From Candidatus Dojkabacteria bacterium (GTDB lineage: Bacteria > Patescibacteriota > Dojkabacteria > SC72), in contig JAGPFQ010000001.1 of NCBI GenBank assembly GCA_018056375.1, positions 598,137 through 644,853 on the forward strand: DNA of 46,717 nt. Direction: 5' to 3'. This document shows positions 925 to 9,317 of this stretch, in pieces (the first letter of the stretch is position 1; every line of letters starts with the position of its first letter). The notes beneath the pieces were generated by a model. The model saw nothing but the letters and a program-made list of their open reading frames with translations. It searched no databases and had not been told where the DNA came from. The translations under genes and the position numbers were made by a program.

Positions 925-1023
925 CAAAGAAAGGTTTAGGATTACAGGTTGCATCCTAAACAATTCATTAACTTTCCCTTTCTACAACTTGTTTTCTTCA
1001 CCCACCTATCCTACAATATCAGT

Positions 1024-1815
1024 ATGAACAAGAACCAAAAGAAAATTGCAATCTTCAAACAACAAAAGATTAGAAGAGTATGGGATGAAGAGAAAGAACT
1101 ATGGTATTTCTCTATCGTTGACATTGTATCAGCACTTGCAGTTAGTAAAGACCCAAGAAAATATTGGAACAAGCTTGCCCAAAGGCTTAGAGAAGAAGGA
1201 AGTGAAGTGGTGACAAATTGTCACCAGTTGAAAATGGAAGCTCCTGATGGAAAGATGAGGCTAACTGATGTTGCTGATACAGAGACACTACTTAGAATTA
1301 TACAATCAATACCTTCTCCTAAAGCTGAACCTCTTAAAATATGGTTAGCTAAAGTTGGATATGAAAGAATTGAAGAGACAGAAGACCCTGAACTAGCTTT
1401 TAACAGAGCTATGAGAACATATCTACAGAAAGGATATTCTAAAGAATGGATTAACCAAAGATTAAAGAGTATTGAAATTAGAAAAGAATTAACTGATGAA
1501 TGGCAAGAGAGAGGTGTAAAGGAAGGTATAGAGTTTGCAATATTAACAGATGAGATTACTAAAGCATGGTCTGATATGACTGTAAGAGATTTTAAGAAGA
1601 AGAAAGGGTTAAAGAAAGAAAGTCTTAGGGATAATATGACTAATTTAGAATTAGTATTGAATATGTTAGCAGAGACATCCACCACAGAGATATCTAAGAG
1701 TAAGAAGCCTAGAAACTTCAAGGAGAATAAAGAAGTTGCAAAAGAAGGAGGTACTGTTGCTAAAAAGGCGAGACTTGAACTAGAGAGTAAGGTTGGAAAG
1801 AAAATGATTGACTAA
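1024..1815 (+). CDS. Bro-N domain protein (phage antirepressor-like, stand-alone)
   Basis: IRRVWDEEKELWYFSIVDIV...YWNKLAQRL...QLKMEAPDGKMRLTDVA...IIQSIPSPKAEP is the typical Bro-N family pattern. Start moved from the track's 949 to ATG 1024, preceded by TTGTTT(989-994)-17nt-TACAAT(1012-1017). Confidence 0.85.
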   Translation: MNKNQKKIAIFKQQKIRRVWDEEKELWYFSIVDIVSALAVSKDPRKYWNKLAQRLREEGSEVVTNCHQLKMEAPDGKMRLTDVADTETLLRIIQSIPSPKAEPLKIWLAKVGYERIEETEDPELAFNRAMRTYLQKGYSKEWINQRLKSIEIRKELTDEWQERGVKEGIEFAILTDEITKAWSDMTVRDFKKKKGLKKESLRDNMTNLELVLNMLAETSTTEISKSKKPRNFKENKEVAKEGGTVAKKARLELESKVGKKMID

Positions 1816-1867: not shown

Positions 1868-2146
1868 ATGGGTAAATTTAACAAAGAGATGATTTGTACT
1901 GAATGTGGTTACATAGGTAAACCCAAAAAGTGGATGAAAGGAAGCTTCTTTATCGAACTAATACTTTGGTTAGCCTTTCTTGTTCCAGGAATTATTTACA
2001 CAATTTGGAGAGTAACAAATACTGTTGCAATATGTCCTAAGTGCGAAAAAGAAACATTAATTCCAACTGATACTCCTAGAGGTGCTGAGCTAAAGGCTAA
2101 AAGCACACAGTTAACTACTCCAAACAACAATCAACAGCTTTCCTAA
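1868..2146 (+). CDS. Small membrane protein with CxxC - hydrophobic segment - CxxC (LITAF-like zinc-binding architecture)
   Basis: CTEC...FFIELILWLAFLVPGIIYTIW...CPKC. Confidence 0.75.
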   Translation: MGKFNKEMICTECGYIGKPKKWMKGSFFIELILWLAFLVPGIIYTIWRVTNTVAICPKCEKETLIPTDTPRGAELKAKSTQLTTPNNNQQLS

Positions 2147-2216
2147 CAACATCCCCTATCTTCCCCCAAAAATCATTCTTCTTTTCTTTTTTCTCTTTCT
2201 TCTTTGTCTTTTCCAT
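2115..2216 (-). CDS. 33-aa ORF MEKTKKKEKKEKKNDFWGKIGDVVRKAVDCCLE; probable detached C-terminus of the 2218..2664 gene
   Basis: Read manually on the minus strand; ATG starts 1 nt after the TAG of the upstream gene; ends TAG 2115-2117. Not in the ORF track. Confidence 0.65.
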   Translation of the reverse strand: MEKTKKKEKKEKKNDFWGKIGDVVRKAVDCCLE

Positions 2217-2217
2217 A

Positions 2218-2664
2218 CTATGCTTTCTTCACATCTTCTAACTTAATAACACCCATATTCAATGCCCAAAACAAAGAATACAAGTTATATGCCTTCTCAA
2301 ATACTTCTTCTGCTTCCTTCTTCTTTCCTCTACCTAAGCACTTTGTCCCATACTCCATTAATCTGTAACTTGCTGCTAACAAATGCTTAGAAATACACCA
2401 AACCTCTCCATCATACTGTTTAATTATCTTCTTCAAAAGTTCCTTCCTCATCTCTCTAATCTCTGCAAGAAGGTCATAATATGTAGAATCTCCTGTCTTA
2501 CCACCACTAAAGAACAGATGTTCTTCAATTGAGATAAGGTTCATAATTGCAATAGATAAATCCTGATCTGCTGAAAGATCTAACTTCTGATCCTTCTTCA
2601 AAGCATCATACTTCTCAACTAACTCATTAACATCTTGCATTTCAATATCTTTTTTCTTTGACAT
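2218..2664 (-). CDS. Conserved helical hypothetical protein (LSIAIMNLISIEEH...WCISKHLL family), apparently C-terminally split
   Basis: ORF track 150 aa from TTG 2670; ATG at 2664 preferred. Motif recognised from memory as a CPR-common family found next to glutaredoxin and membrane CxxC genes. Confidence 0.8.
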   Translation of the reverse strand: MSKKKDIEMQDVNELVEKYDALKKDQKLDLSADQDLSIAIMNLISIEEHLFFSGGKTGDSTYYDLLAEIREMRKELLKKIIKQYDGEVWCISKHLLAASYRLMEYGTKCLGRGKKKEAEEVFEKAYNLYSLFWALNMGVIKLEDVKKA

Positions 2665-2698
2665 AATCAAAAAACATTATCTTAACTAAATATTCTGC

Positions 2699-3694
2699 TT
2701 AGTATACTATGAAATAGAGAATTATTGTAGTTATTAATAATGAAGCCACAGGAACAACTACTCTTTGATATGGGAAATACACCTTACCTTTGTTCTTTTC
2801 CTTTAGGAAAGTATGTAGTTTGCTACCAAGAAAAAACATAACACTACCTAATACTACCCCTAGTAAAATCTTATCTATTCCAAGTAAAGTATTATTTGGA
2901 ATCCCTATCAAACCAGTAATCTTCATAGGGATTAAAGCAAAGGCATACATTAACAGTAAAGAAGCTAAAACCCAGACCCAACCACTGACTTTCTTAGCAA
3001 ATTTTTTCTTTTGAATCCAATCTGCTAACCACAAGCTACTTGAAATCAAAAGACCTCCAATCCAAACACCTACAATAGTATCATCAATACCCAAAGACCT
3101 AGACAAGCCTACACCAGCACCAACAGCTACTGTACAGAGAGGACATACGGCATTTACAGGTGTTGCAAAAAACAAAGGAAGAAGCAACAAAGAAGCTATA
3201 ACCCCAATCTTCTTTCCTCTTCTACTTTTTACAAAATATCCAAAGATTGGAAGGACTATCAAAAACCCAAGAACTATTAAAATCAACTTCTCTGTATTAG
3301 CCTGACCTTTAGACTTTTCTTTCTGCTCAGTTGGAGCTGGTTCTTCAAGCTCTTCCCCTGAGACAATACCTCTAAGCTTCGACATAATTGGTTCAACCCC
3401 TTGGTAACACTTTCCATCCACATATAACATTGGGATGCTAGGATCAACATTACATTCTTTAACCATACTACTAAAAAGCTCTGTTTTTTCCTTCCTACCA
3501 TCTAGTTCTATCTCTTCAAATGTAACAACCTCTTTAATACCCTCCTCTTCAATCTTTCCTTTAACTATATGACAGTAAGGACAGTTTTCTGACCAGAATA
3601 ATATCATCTGGTTTTTTGCAAAGACACCTCCACCTAAAGAGAAGAGAAGTACAAAAGAAATTAGAAAGAATGTGTTAACAGAACCTTTCCTCAT
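2699..3694 (-). CDS. Exported glutaredoxin/thioredoxin-like (CPYC) domain fused to a polytopic membrane domain with CPLC motif
   Basis: N-terminal signal/TM, FWSENCPYCH, later IPMLYVDGKC, TM, then AVCPLCTVAVGAGVGLSRSLGIDDTIVGVWIGG and about 4 more TM segments. Confidence 0.85.
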   Translation of the reverse strand: MRKGSVNTFFLISFVLLFSLGGGVFAKNQMILFWSENCPYCHIVKGKIEEEGIKEVVTFEEIELDGRKEKTELFSSMVKECNVDPSIPMLYVDGKCYQGVEPIMSKLRGIVSGEELEEPAPTEQKEKSKGQANTEKLILIVLGFLIVLPIFGYFVKSRRGKKIGVIASLLLLPLFFATPVNAVCPLCTVAVGAGVGLSRSLGIDDTIVGVWIGGLLISSSLWLADWIQKKKFAKKVSGWVWVLASLLLMYAFALIPMKITGLIGIPNNTLLGIDKILLGVVLGSVMFFLGSKLHTFLKEKNKGKVYFPYQRVVVPVASLLITTIILYFIVY

Positions 3695-3842: not shown

Positions 3843-4325
3843 ATGAAAGGAAAGAAATATGAGGGTTTCTCTCTTATCGAGATCCTAGTAGTAGTAGCAT
3901 TAATCATTATTCTTGCTGCTATTACAATTATTGCAATCAACCCTGCAAAGAACTTTAGGGATACTCGAAATGCACAGAGAGCTTCTGATGTAAATGCTAT
4001 TCTTAATGCAGTTACACAGTATACTTCTGAGCAGAACAAGAAGCTCAGCGACTTAGGAACCATTGTAAAGTGTGAGGATCCCGACGGGAACGAACAGTCT
4101 ACAAAGATTGGTAAAAGTGCAGAAACAGGTTTTATAGACCTTTCTGCAAAACTTGTAGATGAAGCAGACCTAATTGTCGCAATCCCTGTAGACCCATCAC
4201 AAACAAAGGAAAACAAAGAATCAGGTGATGACACAGGTTATACCATCTGTGAGACTGCAGGAGGGAGAGTCCAAATCGCAGCTCCTATGGCTGAAGAAAC
4301 AGATCCTATTGTCGTAAAAAGATAG
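3843..4325 (+). CDS. pilA: Type IV major pilin
   Basis: Class III signal KKYEG|FSLIEILVVVALIIILAAITIIAINP; first gene of the operon; IPVDP motif. Confidence 0.9.
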   Translation: MKGKKYEGFSLIEILVVVALIIILAAITIIAINPAKNFRDTRNAQRASDVNAILNAVTQYTSEQNKKLSDLGTIVKCEDPDGNEQSTKIGKSAETGFIDLSAKLVDEADLIVAIPVDPSQTKENKESGDDTGYTICETAGGRVQIAAPMAEETDPIVVKR

Positions 4326-4381
4326 TTAGAGAAAGAAATATATAAAGTGAGTATCAGATAGCTCTTAGCTGTCCAAGAGTT

Positions 4382-5776
4382 ATGGTAGAACTATTACAAT
4401 TACTAGATGATGTTCTTAAGAAGAAGATTAATATATCTGACTTCCTTGATGCTCTAGTAGTGGATGCTCTTAAAAGCAGAGCATCTGATATTCACATAGA
4501 ATCCAAGGAGGATGATATTCTTTTAGTAAGATACAGGGTTGATGGAGTATTGAGAGATATAATTTCAATTGGTCCAGAACTAAAAGATACTCTCCTCTTT
4601 ATCATCAAAGTAAGAGCTAAGTTAAGAACAGATGTTCATCTTGCACCACAGGATGGGAAGATTCCTTTTGTTGTTAAAAAAGCCGATATTGATGGTGATA
4701 AAGAGAAGATAAAGAAAGAGGAAGAGAATGATAAAGACCAAGAGAAAGATGATGCAGAAAAACCCATTGAGGAAAAAGAGGAAGAGGAACAAGAGAAGAA
4801 AGTACTAAACAGGTTGGAAGCATTCAAAGCAGAAGAAAAAGACACTTACAATGTTGATGCTAGAGTATCAATACTTCCTGTTTCATACGGTGAAAAAGTT
4901 GTAATTAGATTGTTAACACAAGCGAACCGATCTCACTCTTTAGCTGATCTAGGTTTTGAAGAACATGATTTAGCCGAACTAGAGAAAGCATACACACAAC
5001 CATATGGACTAATATTAATTACAGGACCTACAGGTAGTGGTAAAACCACCACACTCTACTCTATTCTAAAGATATTAAATACTCGGGAGGTCAATATAAC
5101 AACGATTGAAGACCCTGTTGAGTACAGTATCGAAGGTGTTAATCATATCCAAATCAACGTAAAAAGTGATTTAACCTTTGCTACTGGACTTAGATCTATT
5201 TTAAGACAAGATCCAAATGTCATTATGGTCGGCGAGATCAGAGATACAGAAACAGCTAGAATTACTGTTAACTCGGCACTAACAGGTCACTTAGTGCTAT
5301 CTACTCTCCACGCAAACGATTCCGTAAGTGCTGTACCAAGATTGATAGATATGGGTATTGAACCTTTTTTAATCGCATCTACATTAAATATTGTCGTTGC
5401 ACAAAGATTAGCAAGAAAACTCTGTCCAGATTGTAAGAAACCATGCTCTCTAGAAAAAGATAAAGAGATAAAAGAAATGTTAAAGATAAGACCAGATGTA
5501 GCAAAATATATAAAACCAACAGATAAATTCTACAAAGCAGTTGGTTGTGATAAATGTAACAATGTTGGATTAAAAGGAAGAATCGGAATATATGAAGTAC
5601 TAGTAATTAACAAAACTATGAGAGATACAATAATAAAGAATCCTACTATGGACGATATTTTCCAAACAGCAAAGAAATCTGGTTTTAAACTAATGGTAGA
5701 AGATGCTGTAGACAAACTTAAAAAAGGATATATAGATATACCTGAATTACTTAAGGTTATTGCAATTAAAGATTAA
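4382..5776 (+). CDS. pilB: Type IV pilus/T2SS assembly ATPase (PilB/GspE)
   Basis: ASDIHIE, Walker A GPTGSGKTTT, TIEDPVEY, LRQDPNVIMVGEIRD, TGHLVLSTLH, CxxC...CxxC zinc motif. Confidence 0.95.
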   Translation: MVELLQLLDDVLKKKINISDFLDALVVDALKSRASDIHIESKEDDILLVRYRVDGVLRDIISIGPELKDTLLFIIKVRAKLRTDVHLAPQDGKIPFVVKKADIDGDKEKIKKEEENDKDQEKDDAEKPIEEKEEEEQEKKVLNRLEAFKAEEKDTYNVDARVSILPVSYGEKVVIRLLTQANRSHSLADLGFEEHDLAELEKAYTQPYGLILITGPTGSGKTTTLYSILKILNTREVNITTIEDPVEYSIEGVNHIQINVKSDLTFATGLRSILRQDPNVIMVGEIRDTETARITVNSALTGHLVLSTLHANDSVSAVPRLIDMGIEPFLIASTLNIVVAQRLARKLCPDCKKPCSLEKDKEIKEMLKIRPDVAKYIKPTDKFYKAVGCDKCNNVGLKGRIGIYEVLVINKTMRDTIIKNPTMDDIFQTAKKSGFKLMVEDAVDKLKKGYIDIPELLKVIAIKD

Positions 5777-6927
5777 TGGCAGAAGAAGAAAAAATCAAAG
5801 AGGAGAAAATTCAAGAAGAGAAACCTAAAAAAGAAAAACCAAAGAAGGAAGTACCTAGAGAGAAGCTTTTGAAAAAATTACAGGGAGTAAAGGTCTCTGT
5901 GCCAAACCTTTTAGTTTCTATAAAATCTTTAGCTTCATTACTTAAAGCTGGTATACCTTTGTCTGAAACAATGGAAACCATTGCAGGGCAATCAAGTGAT
6001 CAAAATCTTAATGCTGTATACGAGTATATCGCTGGAGAAGTTAGAAAAGGAGTCACATTAGCAGAAGCAATGAAACTTTTCCCCAAGGTCTTTCCAGAAA
6101 CAATTTCATCTGTAGTAGAAGCTGGAGAACAAGGTGGTTCTCTTGAACAAAACCTTATCTTCATTTCCGATACAATTAAGAAAGAATGGGAGATTAATAA
6201 GAAGCTAAAGGGGGCAATTATCTACCCTATTATTATAGTTTCTATGGTTTTTATGGTTTTCCTCGCCATGATATTTATAGTATTCCCAAAGTTAGAAGTT
6301 ATGTTTGCAACTTTTGAAAACATACCTACTTTTACAAAAACGATTTTAAGTGTTGCTAAATATATTCGAACAAATTGGTATTTTATCTTTGGTGGTATTG
6401 GTGTCCTAGTTGTTCTTTTTATCATCTTCTTAAAAACAAAACCTGGTAAAAGATTCAAAGGTTGGCTTGGGATTAACTTCCCTATTCTTAAAAATCTCTT
6501 CATCAACAACATTCTATCCTCTTTCTCAAGAACTCTGAGTGTGTTGCTAGCAAGTGGTATTCCTATAGCTAAATCTATGAAAATTGCAGCAAACACAACA
6601 AGTAACTATATTTATGCAGAAGTGTTAGAAGAAGTATACAAGAGTATAGAAGCTGGTGATTCGCTATCTCTTTCATTAGGCAAGCACCCGAAATATTTTA
6701 ATAAATCTTTCATTAAAATGGTTGAGATAGGAGAAGCTAGTGGGTCACTAGAAGACAATCTTATGTACCTACATGAATATTATGCCGAAGAGGTAGGAGA
6801 GATGAGTGCAAATATCGTTACAGTTGTAGAACCTGTTCTACTCATCTTGGTAGGTCTTATCATCGGAAGCTTAGTAGTAACTATCCTCATGCCTATTTAC
6901 CAATTAATGGGTTCTATCAATGGTTAA
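5776..6927 (+). CDS. pilC: Type IV pilus inner-membrane platform protein (PilC/GspF)
   Basis: Two GspF repeats (LLKAGIPL...AGEQGGSL; LLASGIPI...IGEASGSL) and three TM segments; start overlaps pilB stop (TAATG). Confidence 0.95.
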   Translation: MAEEEKIKEEKIQEEKPKKEKPKKEVPREKLLKKLQGVKVSVPNLLVSIKSLASLLKAGIPLSETMETIAGQSSDQNLNAVYEYIAGEVRKGVTLAEAMKLFPKVFPETISSVVEAGEQGGSLEQNLIFISDTIKKEWEINKKLKGAIIYPIIIVSMVFMVFLAMIFIVFPKLEVMFATFENIPTFTKTILSVAKYIRTNWYFIFGGIGVLVVLFIIFLKTKPGKRFKGWLGINFPILKNLFINNILSSFSRTLSVLLASGIPIAKSMKIAANTTSNYIYAEVLEEVYKSIEAGDSLSLSLGKHPKYFNKSFIKMVEIGEASGSLEDNLMYLHEYYAEEVGEMSANIVTVVEPVLLILVGLIIGSLVVTILMPIYQLMGSING

Positions 6928-7381
6928 AAAGTACAACAAAGCAGAAAAATTAAAGGGGTTCTCTCTTTTAGAAATAATTGTAACTGTAGGTATTCTACTT
7001 TTGTTCTCTGGAATAATATTTCCATTTACAATTACAAAAATCAAAAGAACACAACTACAAAGCTATGCTTCTGAGATAGTTGCTGATATATACTTCCAAC
7101 AACAAGAGGCTAGAAACAGAAATCAACCTACAGGTATATTTCTCGAAAGTGGACAGTACACTCTTTTTACAGGAGAGACTTATGAAACAGCTACAGAAAA
7201 AGACAAGAAAGAGCTCAAAAAAGGAACTTACTTATCATCCATTATGTTAAATGATGGAACTTCTATTCGTTTTGAGGGGAGTTCTTTTAAACCTCTGACA
7301 TACGGGTCTTTCCTTTTAAGTAATGGGAGAAGTAGTGTGAAGATAGAAATAAATAAAGAAGGATTAATAGAATATGAATAG
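6920..7381 (+). CDS. Minor pilin (FimT/GspH-like)
   Basis: KLKG|FSLLEIIVTVGILLLFSGII N-methylation signal. Confidence 0.85.
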   Translation: MVKKYNKAEKLKGFSLLEIIVTVGILLLFSGIIFPFTITKIKRTQLQSYASEIVADIYFQQQEARNRNQPTGIFLESGQYTLFTGETYETATEKDKKELKKGTYLSSIMLNDGTSIRFEGSSFKPLTYGSFLLSNGRSSVKIEINKEGLIEYE

Positions 7382-9317
7382 TATTAGAAAGAAATACAAA
7401 GCTTTTAGTTTAGTTGAATTAATTGTAGCAATTGCTGTCTTTGGCTTGATTTCTTCTTTTTTAGTAGTTCTTGTAGTTGATTCAACAAGAGCATATGAGA
7501 ATATGTATGCAAGGTCTAAAGCTACAAGCCTTGTAAAAGAGATATATTCTACTTTGAAATTACTAAAAACAGATAACTGGTTTGAAGTAACAAAGCATAC
7601 AGGATTAGGACCTAAGCATTTAATATTCGAAGAAGGAGAGTACAAGATAGCTGATGGAGAAAAGGTAGAAGGATTACTAACCTACTTCTTTACTGTAGAT
7701 TTCGCACAAAGAGATAGTGATGGAAATATTGTAGAAGAAGGAGGAAATACAGATGCACATACAAGAGTTGTCTCTGTAAACATTAAATGGAAGGACAGAG
7801 CTAATAAAGAGCATACTTTGAATCCCAAACTCTATCTTAATGACTGGCATGTTAATACTTTCACATTTACATCTATGGAGGACTTCCAACCAGGAGGACA
7901 TACCGACACTACAGCTTCTGAGAGTTTTACTGGTGGAGAATTAAGATTACAATCAGTCTTCTATCCTAACTGGTGCAGACCTGAGAGATCTATGAGTAGT
8001 TATGATATCCCAGGAGAAGCATATGCAAAATCTATATTCGCTGAAGTTGGATATGCATATTTAGGTACTAGAGGTGGAGATGTTGGGGATCCATTTACAA
8101 AATTGATAATTGAAGGTGTAAACCCTACAACACTAACAGTAGAGGGAACATTCCAAGGGTATCGTATTAATGATATCTTTGTAGAGGGAAACTATGCATA
8201 TCTTGCAACATCAGATGATGAAAAAGAGATTGTTATCTTAGATATCTCCTCAGTCCCTTACCAAGAAGTTGGACATGTAAATGCACCAGACCAATGGAAT
8301 AATGATGCTAGGAGTGTGTTTGTAAAAGGTAATGTTGGATATCTAACACAGAGTACATATGTTAGAAGTTTTGATTTATCCTCTAAAACAGGTTCTAGGC
8401 CTATTCTTAATAGCATATCTATCAGTCTTATCCCCTGGATAGCATCAGTCTCACAGATACATGTTAAAGATAACTATCTTTATGCTTCACTAGACTGGGA
8501 CTGGTATGAATTAGCTATTCTTGATGTCAGTAATCCCAGTAAAATGAAGATACTCTCTAGAACAAGTGTAAACAATCAACAAGTATATGATATGTATGTT
8601 TCAGATGATGGAAACAGGGTGTATTTTGGAACAAACTACTCTTCAAGTGAGCATGAGTTTTTCATAATTGACACAAGTGTAAAGAATATTAAATGTCCTA
8701 TTATTGCATCTAGAAAAGTAGATATGACTGTTAGAGGTATATCTGTTGTTGAAGATGGAAATGTTGTTGTATTAGTAGGGACATCAGGTCAAGAGTATCA
8801 AGTATTTTCTATCACTGACGAAACAAATCCTGTAAAGTGTGGAGGTATGAGCATACCTTCTGGTGTCTACGATATCCAATCTGTCCTAGATCCACAAGGG
8901 AATGCTTTCTCGTACATCTTAACCGGTGATAAACATCAAGAATTTACAATAATCAGGGGAGGTCCCGGAGGTGGAGATGAAGATACAGGTAATGGTTTTG
9001 TACCAACGGGAAGTTATATCTCCGCAATTCAAGATTCTAAGACCTCAAATTCCACATACTACACCTTAAGTATTCAAACAAATATTCCTGAAGGAACACA
9101 GATGGGTATTCAGATAAGGATTGGTGATAGTCCTACTATGCAAGGTGTATCATGGAAAGGTCCAGATGGAACAAACGGAACATACTACTCCACAAGCGGT
9201 ACATACTCCCTACCACCAGGAACTAAAGGAAGATATTTCCAATACAAAGTAGACTTTACAGGTGACACTGTTAACTCACCTATGCTTGAAGAATTAATTA
9301 TTAGCTATGAGAAATAA
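7374..9317 (+). CDS. Large pilin with LVIVD-type beta-propeller and C-terminal beta domain
   Basis: KYKA|FSLVELIVAIA signal; repeats such as DIFVEGNYAYLATSDDEKEIVILDIS and QIHVKDNYLYASLDWDWYELAILDVSNP. Confidence 0.85.
   Translation: MNSIRKKYKAFSLVELIVAIAVFGLISSFLVVLVVDSTRAYENMYARSKATSLVKEIYSTLKLLKTDNWFEVTKHTGLGPKHLIFEEGEYKIADGEKVEGLLTYFFTVDFAQRDSDGNIVEEGGNTDAHTRVVSVNIKWKDRANKEHTLNPKLYLNDWHVNTFTFTSMEDFQPGGHTDTTASESFTGGELRLQSVFYPNWCRPERSMSSYDIPGEAYAKSIFAEVGYAYLGTRGGDVGDPFTKLIIEGVNPTTLTVEGTFQGYRINDIFVEGNYAYLATSDDEKEIVILDISSVPYQEVGHVNAPDQWNNDARSVFVKGNVGYLTQSTYVRSFDLSSKTGSRPILNSISISLIPWIASVSQIHVKDNYLYASLDWDWYELAILDVSNPSKMKILSRTSVNNQQVYDMYVSDDGNRVYFGTNYSSSEHEFFIIDTSVKNIKCPIIASRKVDMTVRGISVVEDGNVVVLVGTSGQEYQVFSITDETNPVKCGGMSIPSGVYDIQSVLDPQGNAFSYILTGDKHQEFTIIRGGPGGGDEDTGNGFVPTGSYISAIQDSKTSNSTYYTLSIQTNIPEGTQMGIQIRIGDSPTMQGVSWKGPDGTNGTYYSTSGTYSLPPGTKGRYFQYKVDFTGDTVNSPMLEELIISYEK

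Follow-up and report, generated by a model that had tools for sequence, protein, structure and literature searches.

Near the start of a 46,717-nucleotide (nt) stretch of Candidatus Dojkabacteria DNA (the window, hereafter), three minus-strand genes appear to place cysteine motifs outside, at and inside the membrane. This arrangement raises a question: do the genes encode a route for thiols and disulfides across the membrane and, if they do, which way would the electrons move? A first-pass annotation of the same DNA had proposed either a thiol relay or a metal-handling operon. We consider it probable that the module is a trans-membrane thiol-disulfide relay running in one direction or the other. 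That it is an oxidising relay, carrying electrons inward and standing in for DsbB or VKOR, is our tentative choice. The parts of the module are conserved, strictly linked, sided with respect to the membrane and associated with thiol-redox proteins.

The operon runs from gene 1 (3694-2699, 331 amino acids (aa)) through gene 2 (2670-2218, 150 aa) to a mini open reading frame (ORF) of 33 aa (2216-2115). Genes 1 and 2 are separated by 28 nt, and the mini-ORF begins one base past the TAG of gene 2. The polytopic domain of gene 1 is called MEMB here, the gene 2 protein HELI, and the glutaredoxin (Grx)-like protein GRXL.

Gene 1: an exported glutaredoxin-like domain and a polytopic membrane domain

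Gene 1 (2699-3694, minus strand) encodes a signal peptide (aa 1-26), a Grx-like domain (aa ~28-112; 3359-3613, minus strand), a linker transmembrane (TM) helix and MEMB. We found 93 homologues, and the AlphaFold2 model of the protein has a mean predicted local distance difference test score (pLDDT) of 86.7. The Pfam Glutaredoxin profile (PF00462) matched aa 31-96 with 27.2 bits, above its curated cut-off of 22.9 (E = 4.5e-6), and Foldseek paired the domain with Grx2, Grx3 and GrxA at a probability of 1.0 and target template-modelling scores (TM-scores) of 0.5-0.69; the N-terminal domain thus has the beta-alpha fold of the thioredoxin (Trx) type. Its CPYC motif (C38-P-Y-C41, nt 3583-3572, minus strand) opens helix 39-50 of the model, as expected of an active-site CxxC at a helix N-terminus, and a conserved cis-Pro loop (I87-P88) precedes strand 89-92. 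The motif reads CP[YH]C in nearly all aligned homologues, with CKYC and CPEC as rare variants; the residue before the cis-Pro is I/V. Two features, export and a second conserved Cys pair (C81, C96), distinguish the domain from classical glutaredoxins. Nor did it score as a classical glutathione-dependent glutaredoxin: the NCBIfam Grx models gave it 24-30 bits, far short of their cut-offs (84-130).

Between the Grx-like domain and the MEMB motif are two TM helices joined by a basic loop (KSRRGKK). The ORF, the signal peptide, Pfam and Foldseek together bear out the earlier description of gene 1 as an exported Grx-like CPYC domain joined to a polytopic CPLC domain. That description had also taken the fusion itself as evidence of functional coupling, and here the outcome is mixed: the fusion exists in the window, but it is a peculiarity of this lineage (plus one other metagenome-assembled genome (MAG), L131), whereas elsewhere a gene of its own, lying upstream, encodes the Grx-like protein. 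Such a stand-alone, membrane-anchored version of 115-180 aa directly precedes MEMB in about 60 of 120 other loci, and both stand-alone versions that we read carry CPHC.

Alignments delimit MEMB at aa 163-331 (2699-3208, minus strand) and divide it into an entry TM helix, a CPxC helix and four further TM helices. Its opening motif, A-x-C-P-x-C-T-V-A-V-G-A-G, is invariant and contains the only conserved cysteines of the domain (C184-P-L-C187, nt 3145-3134, minus strand). In the AlphaFold2 model, CPLC forms the N-terminus of a 16-residue Gly/Ala-rich helix. The CPxC was retained in 80 of 80 MEMB sequences, and the full set of residues invariant in 80 homologues comprises A182, C184, P185, C187, A190, V191, G194, G202, D204, D205, W211, G213, D274 and K275.

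The sidedness of MEMB was read from its charges. The mean number of Lys plus Arg residues was 4.2 at the N-terminus, 4.4 in loop B and 5.2 in loop D, which we assign to the inside; the loops bearing GIDD and GHPxN-GIDK, assigned to the outside, averaged 0.95 and 1.9. Under the positive-inside rule this distribution predicts that the CPxC helix faces outward, together with the GIDD, G(H)PxN and GIDK motifs, and that the FPYQK motif is cytoplasmic. A MEMB-HELI fusion (P0067) was rejected as topology evidence: it is known from one sequence on one contig, it contradicts the positive-inside result (which puts the MEMB C-terminus outside), and it probably reflects a lost stop codon.

To what known family could MEMB belong? 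The domain had no match in Pfam, NCBIfam, PDB sequences or PDB folds; in the Foldseek search of the PDB with gene 1, MEMB gave nothing at E <= 0.001, and the 50 best-ranked matches all rest on the Grx-like domain. Tests of individual families covered gene 1 plus 41 stand-alone MEMB proteins. DsbD_TM/CcdA (PF02683) matched none of them, even at E values up to 5. DsbB (PF02600) did not match, and MEMB has a single conserved Cys pair, not two periplasmic pairs. VKOR (PF07884) gave sub-threshold scores for 2 of the 41 (E = 0.019; 15.5 bits vs. 27.5), leaving the CPxC uncovered. Pfam yielded no MauE match for MEMB and, in the MerT/MerP/HMA test, no MerT or HMA match for gene 1, gene 2 or their homologues. 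A kinship with RseC_MucC, hinted at by sub-threshold matches in 9 of the 41 (best E = 0.002), was rejected; we tentatively ascribe those scores to the Gly/Cys-rich stretch. The earlier suggestions that the membrane domain lies outside the characterised families, and that the module resembles DsbD/CcdA and VKOR relays in logic and not in motif, both survive these searches.

Some MEMB proteins depart from the common plan. In a Pacearchaeota MAG (P0047; L009 4001-4738, 245 aa) the domain has an internal duplication, from WIGGL to GNPLNTLCFC, with extra cysteines. Three contigs (G036:C13, G104:C6 and G341:C1) bear second, more divergent MEMB copies 1-4 kb from DsbD_TM-containing fusion proteins, and on a fourth (G225:C33) the MEMB-HELI locus itself lies at that distance from one; the open frames of these fusion proteins measure 367-580 aa.

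HELI: a conserved cytoplasmic helical protein with a single core cysteine

Gene 2 (2218-2670, minus strand; the likelier start is the ATG at 2664) encodes the HELI core, a cytoplasmic helical bundle of 150 aa. The protein is soluble and all-helical, and neither it nor the tail described below has a signal peptide. Conserved motifs are DLSxDxDLS, MNLISIEEH and GEvWCiSKHLLAASxRLxEVGTK, the last of which holds the lone conserved core cysteine (W91-C92; 2395-2400, minus strand), at least 90% conserved. In the numbering of the full-length relative P0218, used from here on, W93, C94, C181, C182 and E184 are at least 90% conserved, and the invariant or nearly invariant positions are D33, E51, E52, H53, R77, E91, W93, C94, K97, H98, R105, E108, C181, C182 and E184. 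Along helix 3, residues E91, C94, H98, A101, R105, E108 and K112 form one stripe with 3-4 spacing, flanked by a hydrophobic stripe (W93, L100, M104, M107). It is plausible that the polar stripe forms a groove around the single core cysteine and serves as a docking site for the Lys-rich tail helix. The AlphaFold2 model of a full-length relative is a bundle of four to five helices (pLDDT 81.8) with a low-confidence tail.

HELI, like MEMB, had no Pfam, NCBIfam, PDB-sequence or PDB-fold match, and the family, PDB and Foldseek searches revealed no recognisable cofactor site or motif. Sulfhydryl oxidases of the Erv/ALR or Ero1 type were matched neither by Pfam nor by PDB sequence nor by Foldseek, and the core has one conserved cysteine. 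A di-iron protein of the rubrerythrin/ferritin kind was considered and rejected: the best sulerythrin and rubrerythrin matches had E values of 0.58-1.2 and TM-scores of 0.23-0.32, and in place of ExxH pairs HELI conserves EEH and E-x6-H.

The family is large and slow to change. Of 8,000 scored word-search candidates, 7,988 fell at E <= 0.001; the family comprises 486 clusters at 50% identity, and HELI is carried by at least 579 of 185,579 species-level genomes. Within Dojkabacteria, HELI is 72-92% identical, compared with 40-58% for gene 1, and the Pacearchaeota HELI, taken as reference, shares 65-82% identity with its 80 best relatives in other species genomes. Two independent HELI clusters (P0271, P0304) bear inteins containing LAGLIDADG, inserted exactly between W and C; this placement marks the site as functionally central. 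The 65-80% identity across phyla and the targeting by inteins are marks of a central function. Fusions point to redox partners: HELI is found joined to an N-terminal thioredoxin domain and, separately, with a glutaredoxin inserted between core and tail. Tandem-duplicated HELI proteins (P0219-P0221, ~345 aa; P0243 is apparently a truncated duplicate) have lost the WC cysteine from the first copy and keep WC and the CC tail only in the second.

A cysteine tail detached into its own gene

The first-pass annotation had described gene 2 as soluble and helical, with a WC and a terminal CC pair. All of this stood except the last item: gene 2 terminates ...VKKA*, with its TAG at 2220-2218, and the D-C-C-L-E lies past that stop in a different frame, in the 33-aa mini-ORF (2115-2216, minus strand; MEKTKKKEKKEKKNDFWGKIGDVVRKAVDCCLE). 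This gene 3 encodes a Lys-rich head and an amphipathic helix ending in D-C-C-L-E, with the CC at nt 2129-2124. HELI proteins of other phyla, 175-190 aa long, carry this tail in frame at their C-terminus and are ordered as helical core, variable low-complexity linker, amphipathic helix and, at the exact C-terminus, (D/N)-C-C-x-E. Judged by its sequence, the mini-ORF is the detached C-terminal tail of HELI.

In the window's class, across eight lineages, the tail is always an ORF of its own, started by ATG and 29-54 aa long (133 aa in one). Its offsets from the gene 2 stop (-26, -8, 2, 2, 4, 4, 21 and 24 nt) cover all three relative frames. Programmed frameshifting, read-through or recoding, and assembly or sequencing error were rejected on these grounds: eight lineages with their own ATGs, eight offset measurements and three frames. 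The split is therefore real and ancient, which implies that the tail can work in trans. The 133-aa version, from another family of the class (L041 3448-3849), has an extra N-terminal domain of ~100 aa before its ...FWSKLGKMVKEAVDCCIE end.

Linkage, distribution and exchange of the membrane partner

Co-occurrence was assessed in an even set of 401 Patescibacteria genomes, with statistics that ignore phylogeny. MEMB was present in 50, HELI in 57 and both in 47, leaving three MEMB-only and ten HELI-only genomes; in all 47 the two genes are adjacent (Fisher p = 1.5e-47). Corroborating this linkage, MEMB lies immediately upstream at 75 of the 80 best HELI loci of species genomes, and at about 48 of the 80 MEMB is itself preceded by the gene of a membrane-anchored Grx-like CPHC protein. 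The order GRXL-MEMB-HELI recurs across many candidate phyla and in one Pacearchaeota MAG, named as such by NCBI, on which the archaeal presence rests. Thus the genes co-occur and their cysteine motifs are conserved (the CPxC invariably, WC and CCxE at 90% or more); the reverse of either, according to the first-pass annotation, would have refuted its reading. The layout proposed there, an outside CxxC, a membrane CxxC and an inside CC, agrees with the predicted outer position of the MEMB CPxC and with the lack of a signal peptide on HELI and its tail. Within the 401-genome sample the distribution is patchy even inside the window's family, which suggests an accessory, horizontally mobile module.

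The HELI-only genomes are informative. In five of the ten, HELI lies directly beside 6-TM proteins of one family with NPC...FPC(T/S)GGP motifs; four of these five loci have an exported thioredoxin-like CPHC/CSHC protein, and one has VKOR. One of the five 6-TM proteins scored above the Pfam DsbD_TM cut-off; the others had below-cut-off matches to DsbD_TM or SfLAP, or neither. They are thus divergent CcdA-superfamily two-Cys proteins, and HELI on this assignment has two unrelated kinds of two-Cys membrane partner, with the gene order unchanged. With a CcdA-like protein in the place of MEMB, the membrane station would therefore be interchangeable with a known type of thiol transporter. In another HELI-only genome (L032 3168-4151), HELI adjoins a 327-aa membrane protein with a TM-embedded VACCAHH and no DsbD_TM or MerT match; this protein is a candidate for a third kind of membrane partner. 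Other module loci have genes for thioredoxin, thioredoxin reductase, DsbA and DsbB nearby, and further neighbours encode ArsR, Thioredoxin_3, ArsP_1 and DsbD_TM proteins.

Several carriers have unexpected taxonomic names. Six species-representative MAGs of 0.7-1.1 Mb titled Gammaproteobacteria or Bdellovibrionales (L063, L064, L073, L097, L099 and L102) are without Omp85/BamA and carry the trio in the form typical of the Candidate Phyla Radiation (CPR); their titles are probably wrong. A 4-Mb, BamA-encoding 'delta proteobacterium' MAG (G418) has a MEMB-HELI pair without a Grx-like gene on a 2.19-Mb contig (L127 1957-3040). This pair is about 70% identical to the CPR versions and could be a recent horizontal transfer or the product of chimeric assembly.

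A proposed relay and the direction of electron flow

How might these parts work together? Every conserved cysteine of the module stands in a CxxC, in a CC or in a single activated-Cys context, and we infer an order of exchange through four stations. At the first, the exported Grx-like CPYC would swap thiols and disulfides with the cysteines of envelope proteins, a two-Cys pilin encoded nearby being a candidate substrate. The second station would be the MEMB CPLC, on a short Gly-rich helix at, or dipping from, the outer side of the 5-TM domain, where it would recycle the Grx-like domain. The vicinal Cys-Cys ending the amphipathic helix would form the third and exchange with the MEMB pair; in most phyla this helix is the tethered tail of HELI and in the window's lineage the free 33-aa peptide. 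At the fourth, the tail would dock on the polar stripe of HELI (E-x2-C-x3-H-x6-R-x2-E) and exchange with the single core cysteine. In the oxidising version, disulfides would be made or maintained outside the cell.

Within this scheme we lean slightly towards inward electron flow, because of the CP[HY]C of the exported partner, a genus without DsbB or VKOR, even cysteine counts and the depletion of DsbB and VKOR among carriers. CP[HY]C with I/V before the cis-Pro is the pattern of DsbA and Grx, not of CcmG, ResA or DsbC. Neither DsbB nor VKOR was found in the window's genome or in the 12 genomes of its genus that were searched; DsbD_TM/CcdA was absent from the window's genome by tblastn and, by Pfam DsbD_TM, from five genomes of the genus. 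The two-Cys pilin-like gene transcribed divergently from the shared spacer counts on the same side. An even cysteine count is a classic signature of structural disulfides, and in the window's genome exported or anchored proteins had even and odd counts in a ratio of 43:31, compared with 143:228 for cytoplasmic proteins (odds ratio 2.2, p = 0.003). Across the sampled genomes, DsbB or VKOR was present in 12 of 47 carriers vs. 182 of 341 others (odds ratio 0.30, p = 5e-4, not corrected for phylogeny); with the window's clade removed the odds ratio was 0.37 (p = 0.007). The corresponding figures for the CcdA family were 18 of 47 carriers vs. 56 of 100 others (p = 0.05), not significant once the clade was removed (p = 0.26).

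A number of points weigh against an inward-running relay of this kind. The single Cys pair of MEMB lies towards the outer side, with no evident route to it for a CC tail in the cytoplasm. A de novo generator of disulfides needs an oxidant or a cofactor, and HELI has no cofactor site that can be recognised. The anaerobic digester habitat offers no obvious electron sink. All characterised CcdA/DsbD systems of which we know move electrons outwards; the partner swap therefore argues for the opposite, reducing direction. The genome also has thioredoxin and thioredoxin reductase, a possible feed for a reductive relay. Twelve carriers have DsbB or VKOR as well, DsbA and DsbB both lie within 8 kb at one Woesebacteria locus, and the co-occurrence statistics behind the depletion are without phylogenetic correction. 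Because of that lack of correction, we put the relay itself no higher than probable and divide it between a tentatively preferred oxidising direction and a reducing one that we think rather doubtful.

In the reducing version the same four stations would run as in DsbD/CcdA, from thioredoxin and thioredoxin reductase through the HELI core and tail and the MEMB CPxC to the exported Grx-like domain, and their output, which we hold equally doubtful, would be the repair of sulfenylated or misbonded surface cysteines or the feeding of surface reductases. The exchange of MEMB for a CcdA-superfamily protein, the Trx and thioredoxin reductase of the window's genome and the anaerobic habitat suit this version, as do the HELI proteins fused to, or beside, cytoplasmic Trx or Grx domains. 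An all-thiol relay would moreover be cofactor-free, matching HELI, and DsbG, a DsbD-dependent reductase, also has CPYC. Yet the dominant motif of the exported partner is CPHC, and the residue before its cis-Pro is I/V, not the Thr typical of DsbD/CcdA clients. Carriers are depleted in DsbB/VKOR and not associated with them, while their CcdA depletion is weak; the genus is without an oxidative system that could make errors to be corrected, and there is no evident reason for thioredoxin to need so conserved an adaptor. A bolder form of the oxidising relay, which we regard as unlikely, would make HELI a new kind of cytoplasmic disulfide generator: its core cysteine, in the Cys-His-Glu/Arg stripe, would be oxidised by an unrecognised cofactor or small oxidant, and the disulfide would pass to the CC tail (in this lineage a free, diffusible peptide of 33 aa), to the MEMB CPxC and on to the surface Grx/DsbA-like domain.

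Thiol chemistry is not the only possibility. The cysteines might instead pass a thiophilic metal or metalloid (Cu(I), As(III), Hg(II) or similar) by the logic of MerP, MerT and the MerA tail, with HELI as metallochaperone or sink. An ArsR-family regulator stands directly beside the module in 6 of 45 loci, three or four of which also have a Thioredoxin_3 protein and an ArsP_1 permease; vicinal Cys pairs occur at the C-terminus of MerA and ArsD, and the invariant E/H/C stripe of HELI could ligate a metal. Most loci, however, have no metal genes nearby, and ArsR-family regulators sense redox state too. No MerT, HMA or ArsD match was obtained for MEMB, HELI or the tail; the exported partner has a Trx fold with CP[HY]C and a cis-Pro loop, not an HMA fold; the partner swap involves a thiol transporter plus thioredoxins; and 65-80% identity across phyla would be unusual for a resistance determinant. 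We therefore judge metal transfer improbable. As to the earlier alternative of thiol relay or metal handling, the evidence makes thiol chemistry the more probable of the two. Least probable of all, in our estimate, is that HELI is a Cys-His-Glu enzyme or regulator merely co-regulated with an autonomous outer pair of Grx-like protein and MEMB, which would perhaps use scavenged quinone. The outer position of the CPxC, a MEMB without inner cysteines, the faint VKOR-like matches (2 of 41 MEMB proteins, E = 0.02) and the enzyme-like, very high conservation of HELI accord with such a separation. Unless something is handed over physically or chemically, it is nonetheless difficult to account for the pairing of HELI with two unrelated two-Cys membrane proteins; MEMB also conserves FPYQK on its cytoplasmic side, and the strict C-terminal CCxE on a long, variable linker resembles a shuttle arm.

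Genomic setting and transcription

The host of the window has an 812-kb genome of 34% G+C; named close homologues are from Candidatus Dojkabacteria, and DNA identical to the window is present in metagenomes of anaerobic digesters, wastewater and biogas plants. The operon is covered by RNA-seq contigs from biogas and digester samples, and metatranscriptome pieces map onto it with zero differences; DNA carry-over is possible in those libraries. One RNA-seq contig of 2,252 nt extends from the upstream spacer through genes 1 and 2 into the start of gene 3. Transcription of the mini-ORF has as its sole support an RNA contig (run X25) that extends into 2115-2216.

Divergent from gene 1, and sharing its upstream spacer, is a gene for a type IV pilin-like protein (3843-4325, plus strand) with a G|FSLIE prepilin signal and exactly two cysteines; at the equivalent place, homologous Dojkabacteria loci have N_methyl and T2SSE genes. 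This two-Cys pilin is a candidate substrate of the relay. It belongs to a type IV pilus cluster (3843-9317, plus strand), in which the two-Cys gene resembles that of a major pilin and is accompanied by genes for a PilB-like ATPase and a PilC-like platform protein; two more genes are prepilin-like, and one of these encodes 647 aa. On the other side, a convergent 92-aa ORF (1868-2146, plus strand) shares 32 nt at its 3' end with the 3' end of the CC mini-ORF; it has a TM segment between two CxxC zinc-ribbon knuckles and weak Pmp3 and zinc-ribbon matches. Just downstream of the operon, 949-1815 (plus strand) encodes a protein of 288 aa that contains Bro-N (E = 7e-9), a domain characteristic of antirepressor-like proteins of phages.

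Relation to known systems and significance

Like DsbD/CcdA systems, the module is laid out over three compartments, with a thiol protein in the cytoplasm, one Cys pair in a membrane protein and a Trx-fold CxxC protein that is exported, and some genomes pair HELI with a divergent CcdA-superfamily protein in place of MEMB. Unlike them, MEMB has no DsbD_TM sequence or fold match; the cysteines of CcdA lie on two TM helices, whereas those of MEMB form one CPxC on a single short helix at the outer side, and in the cytoplasm a CC-tailed helical bundle takes the place of a thioredoxin. With DsbA-DsbB, VKOR-Trx and MauE-MauD the module shares a small helical membrane protein whose outer CxxC or CxC recycles an exported CP[HY]C Trx-fold protein. 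MauE has recently been reported in a preprint as a further DsbB-like family (bioRxiv 10.64898/2026.03.05.709764), a sign of remaining gaps in the field. The VKOR-Trx proteins of cyanobacteria and actinobacteria also resemble gene 1 in having a Trx-fold domain joined via an extra TM helix. MEMB differs from DsbB, VKOR and MauE in having neither a second (shuttle) Cys pair nor detectable homology, and the module, unlike those systems, includes a cytoplasmic partner as an obligatory component. The analysis yielded no sign of a quinone site, and quinone synthesis is generally taken to be absent from CPR bacteria. Carriers of the module tend to lack DsbB and VKOR.

The tail of HELI has its own parallels. 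Erv2p (CGC), class I ribonucleotide reductase, high-Mr thioredoxin reductase (GCUG/SCCS) and MerA (CC) likewise have a mobile arm that ends, at the very C-terminus, in a Cys pair. Such arms shuttle equivalents between a buried site and an external partner; in MerA they bind metal. Erv2p also has a four-helix-bundle core. HELI, in contrast, has no homology to any of these proteins, its core has a single cysteine and not a CxxC plus flavin, and in the window's lineage the arm is a free 33-aa peptide from its own gene. We know of no precedent for a free, gene-encoded peptide arm of this sort.

The module is real, conserved and uncharacterised, and it looks like an undescribed thiol/disulfide route across the membrane. 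A search of the literature on disulfide systems of Patescibacteria/CPR and on Trx and Grx of Dojkabacteria found no description of it, and neither protein family was found to have an annotation or a structure. CPR bacteria and DPANN archaea have minimal genomes and are generally taken to have neither a respiratory chain nor quinone synthesis. To our knowledge, it is not known how the Cys-containing surface proteins of these organisms, host-attachment pili among them, fold or are protected. DsbB or VKOR was present in only about half of the sampled Patescibacteria, and the module in about 12%. If the relay is real, it would add to the Dsb field a new fold of membrane thiol transporter and a new class of cytoplasmic partner, and in this lineage a rare instance of a tiny gene-encoded peptide serving as a redox shuttle. 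Should HELI prove to be a disulfide generator, the module would be an independent route to extracytoplasmic disulfides besides DsbB, VKOR and MauE, one that is quinone-free in ultra-small symbionts and that has a gene-encoded mini-peptide as its mobile redox carrier.

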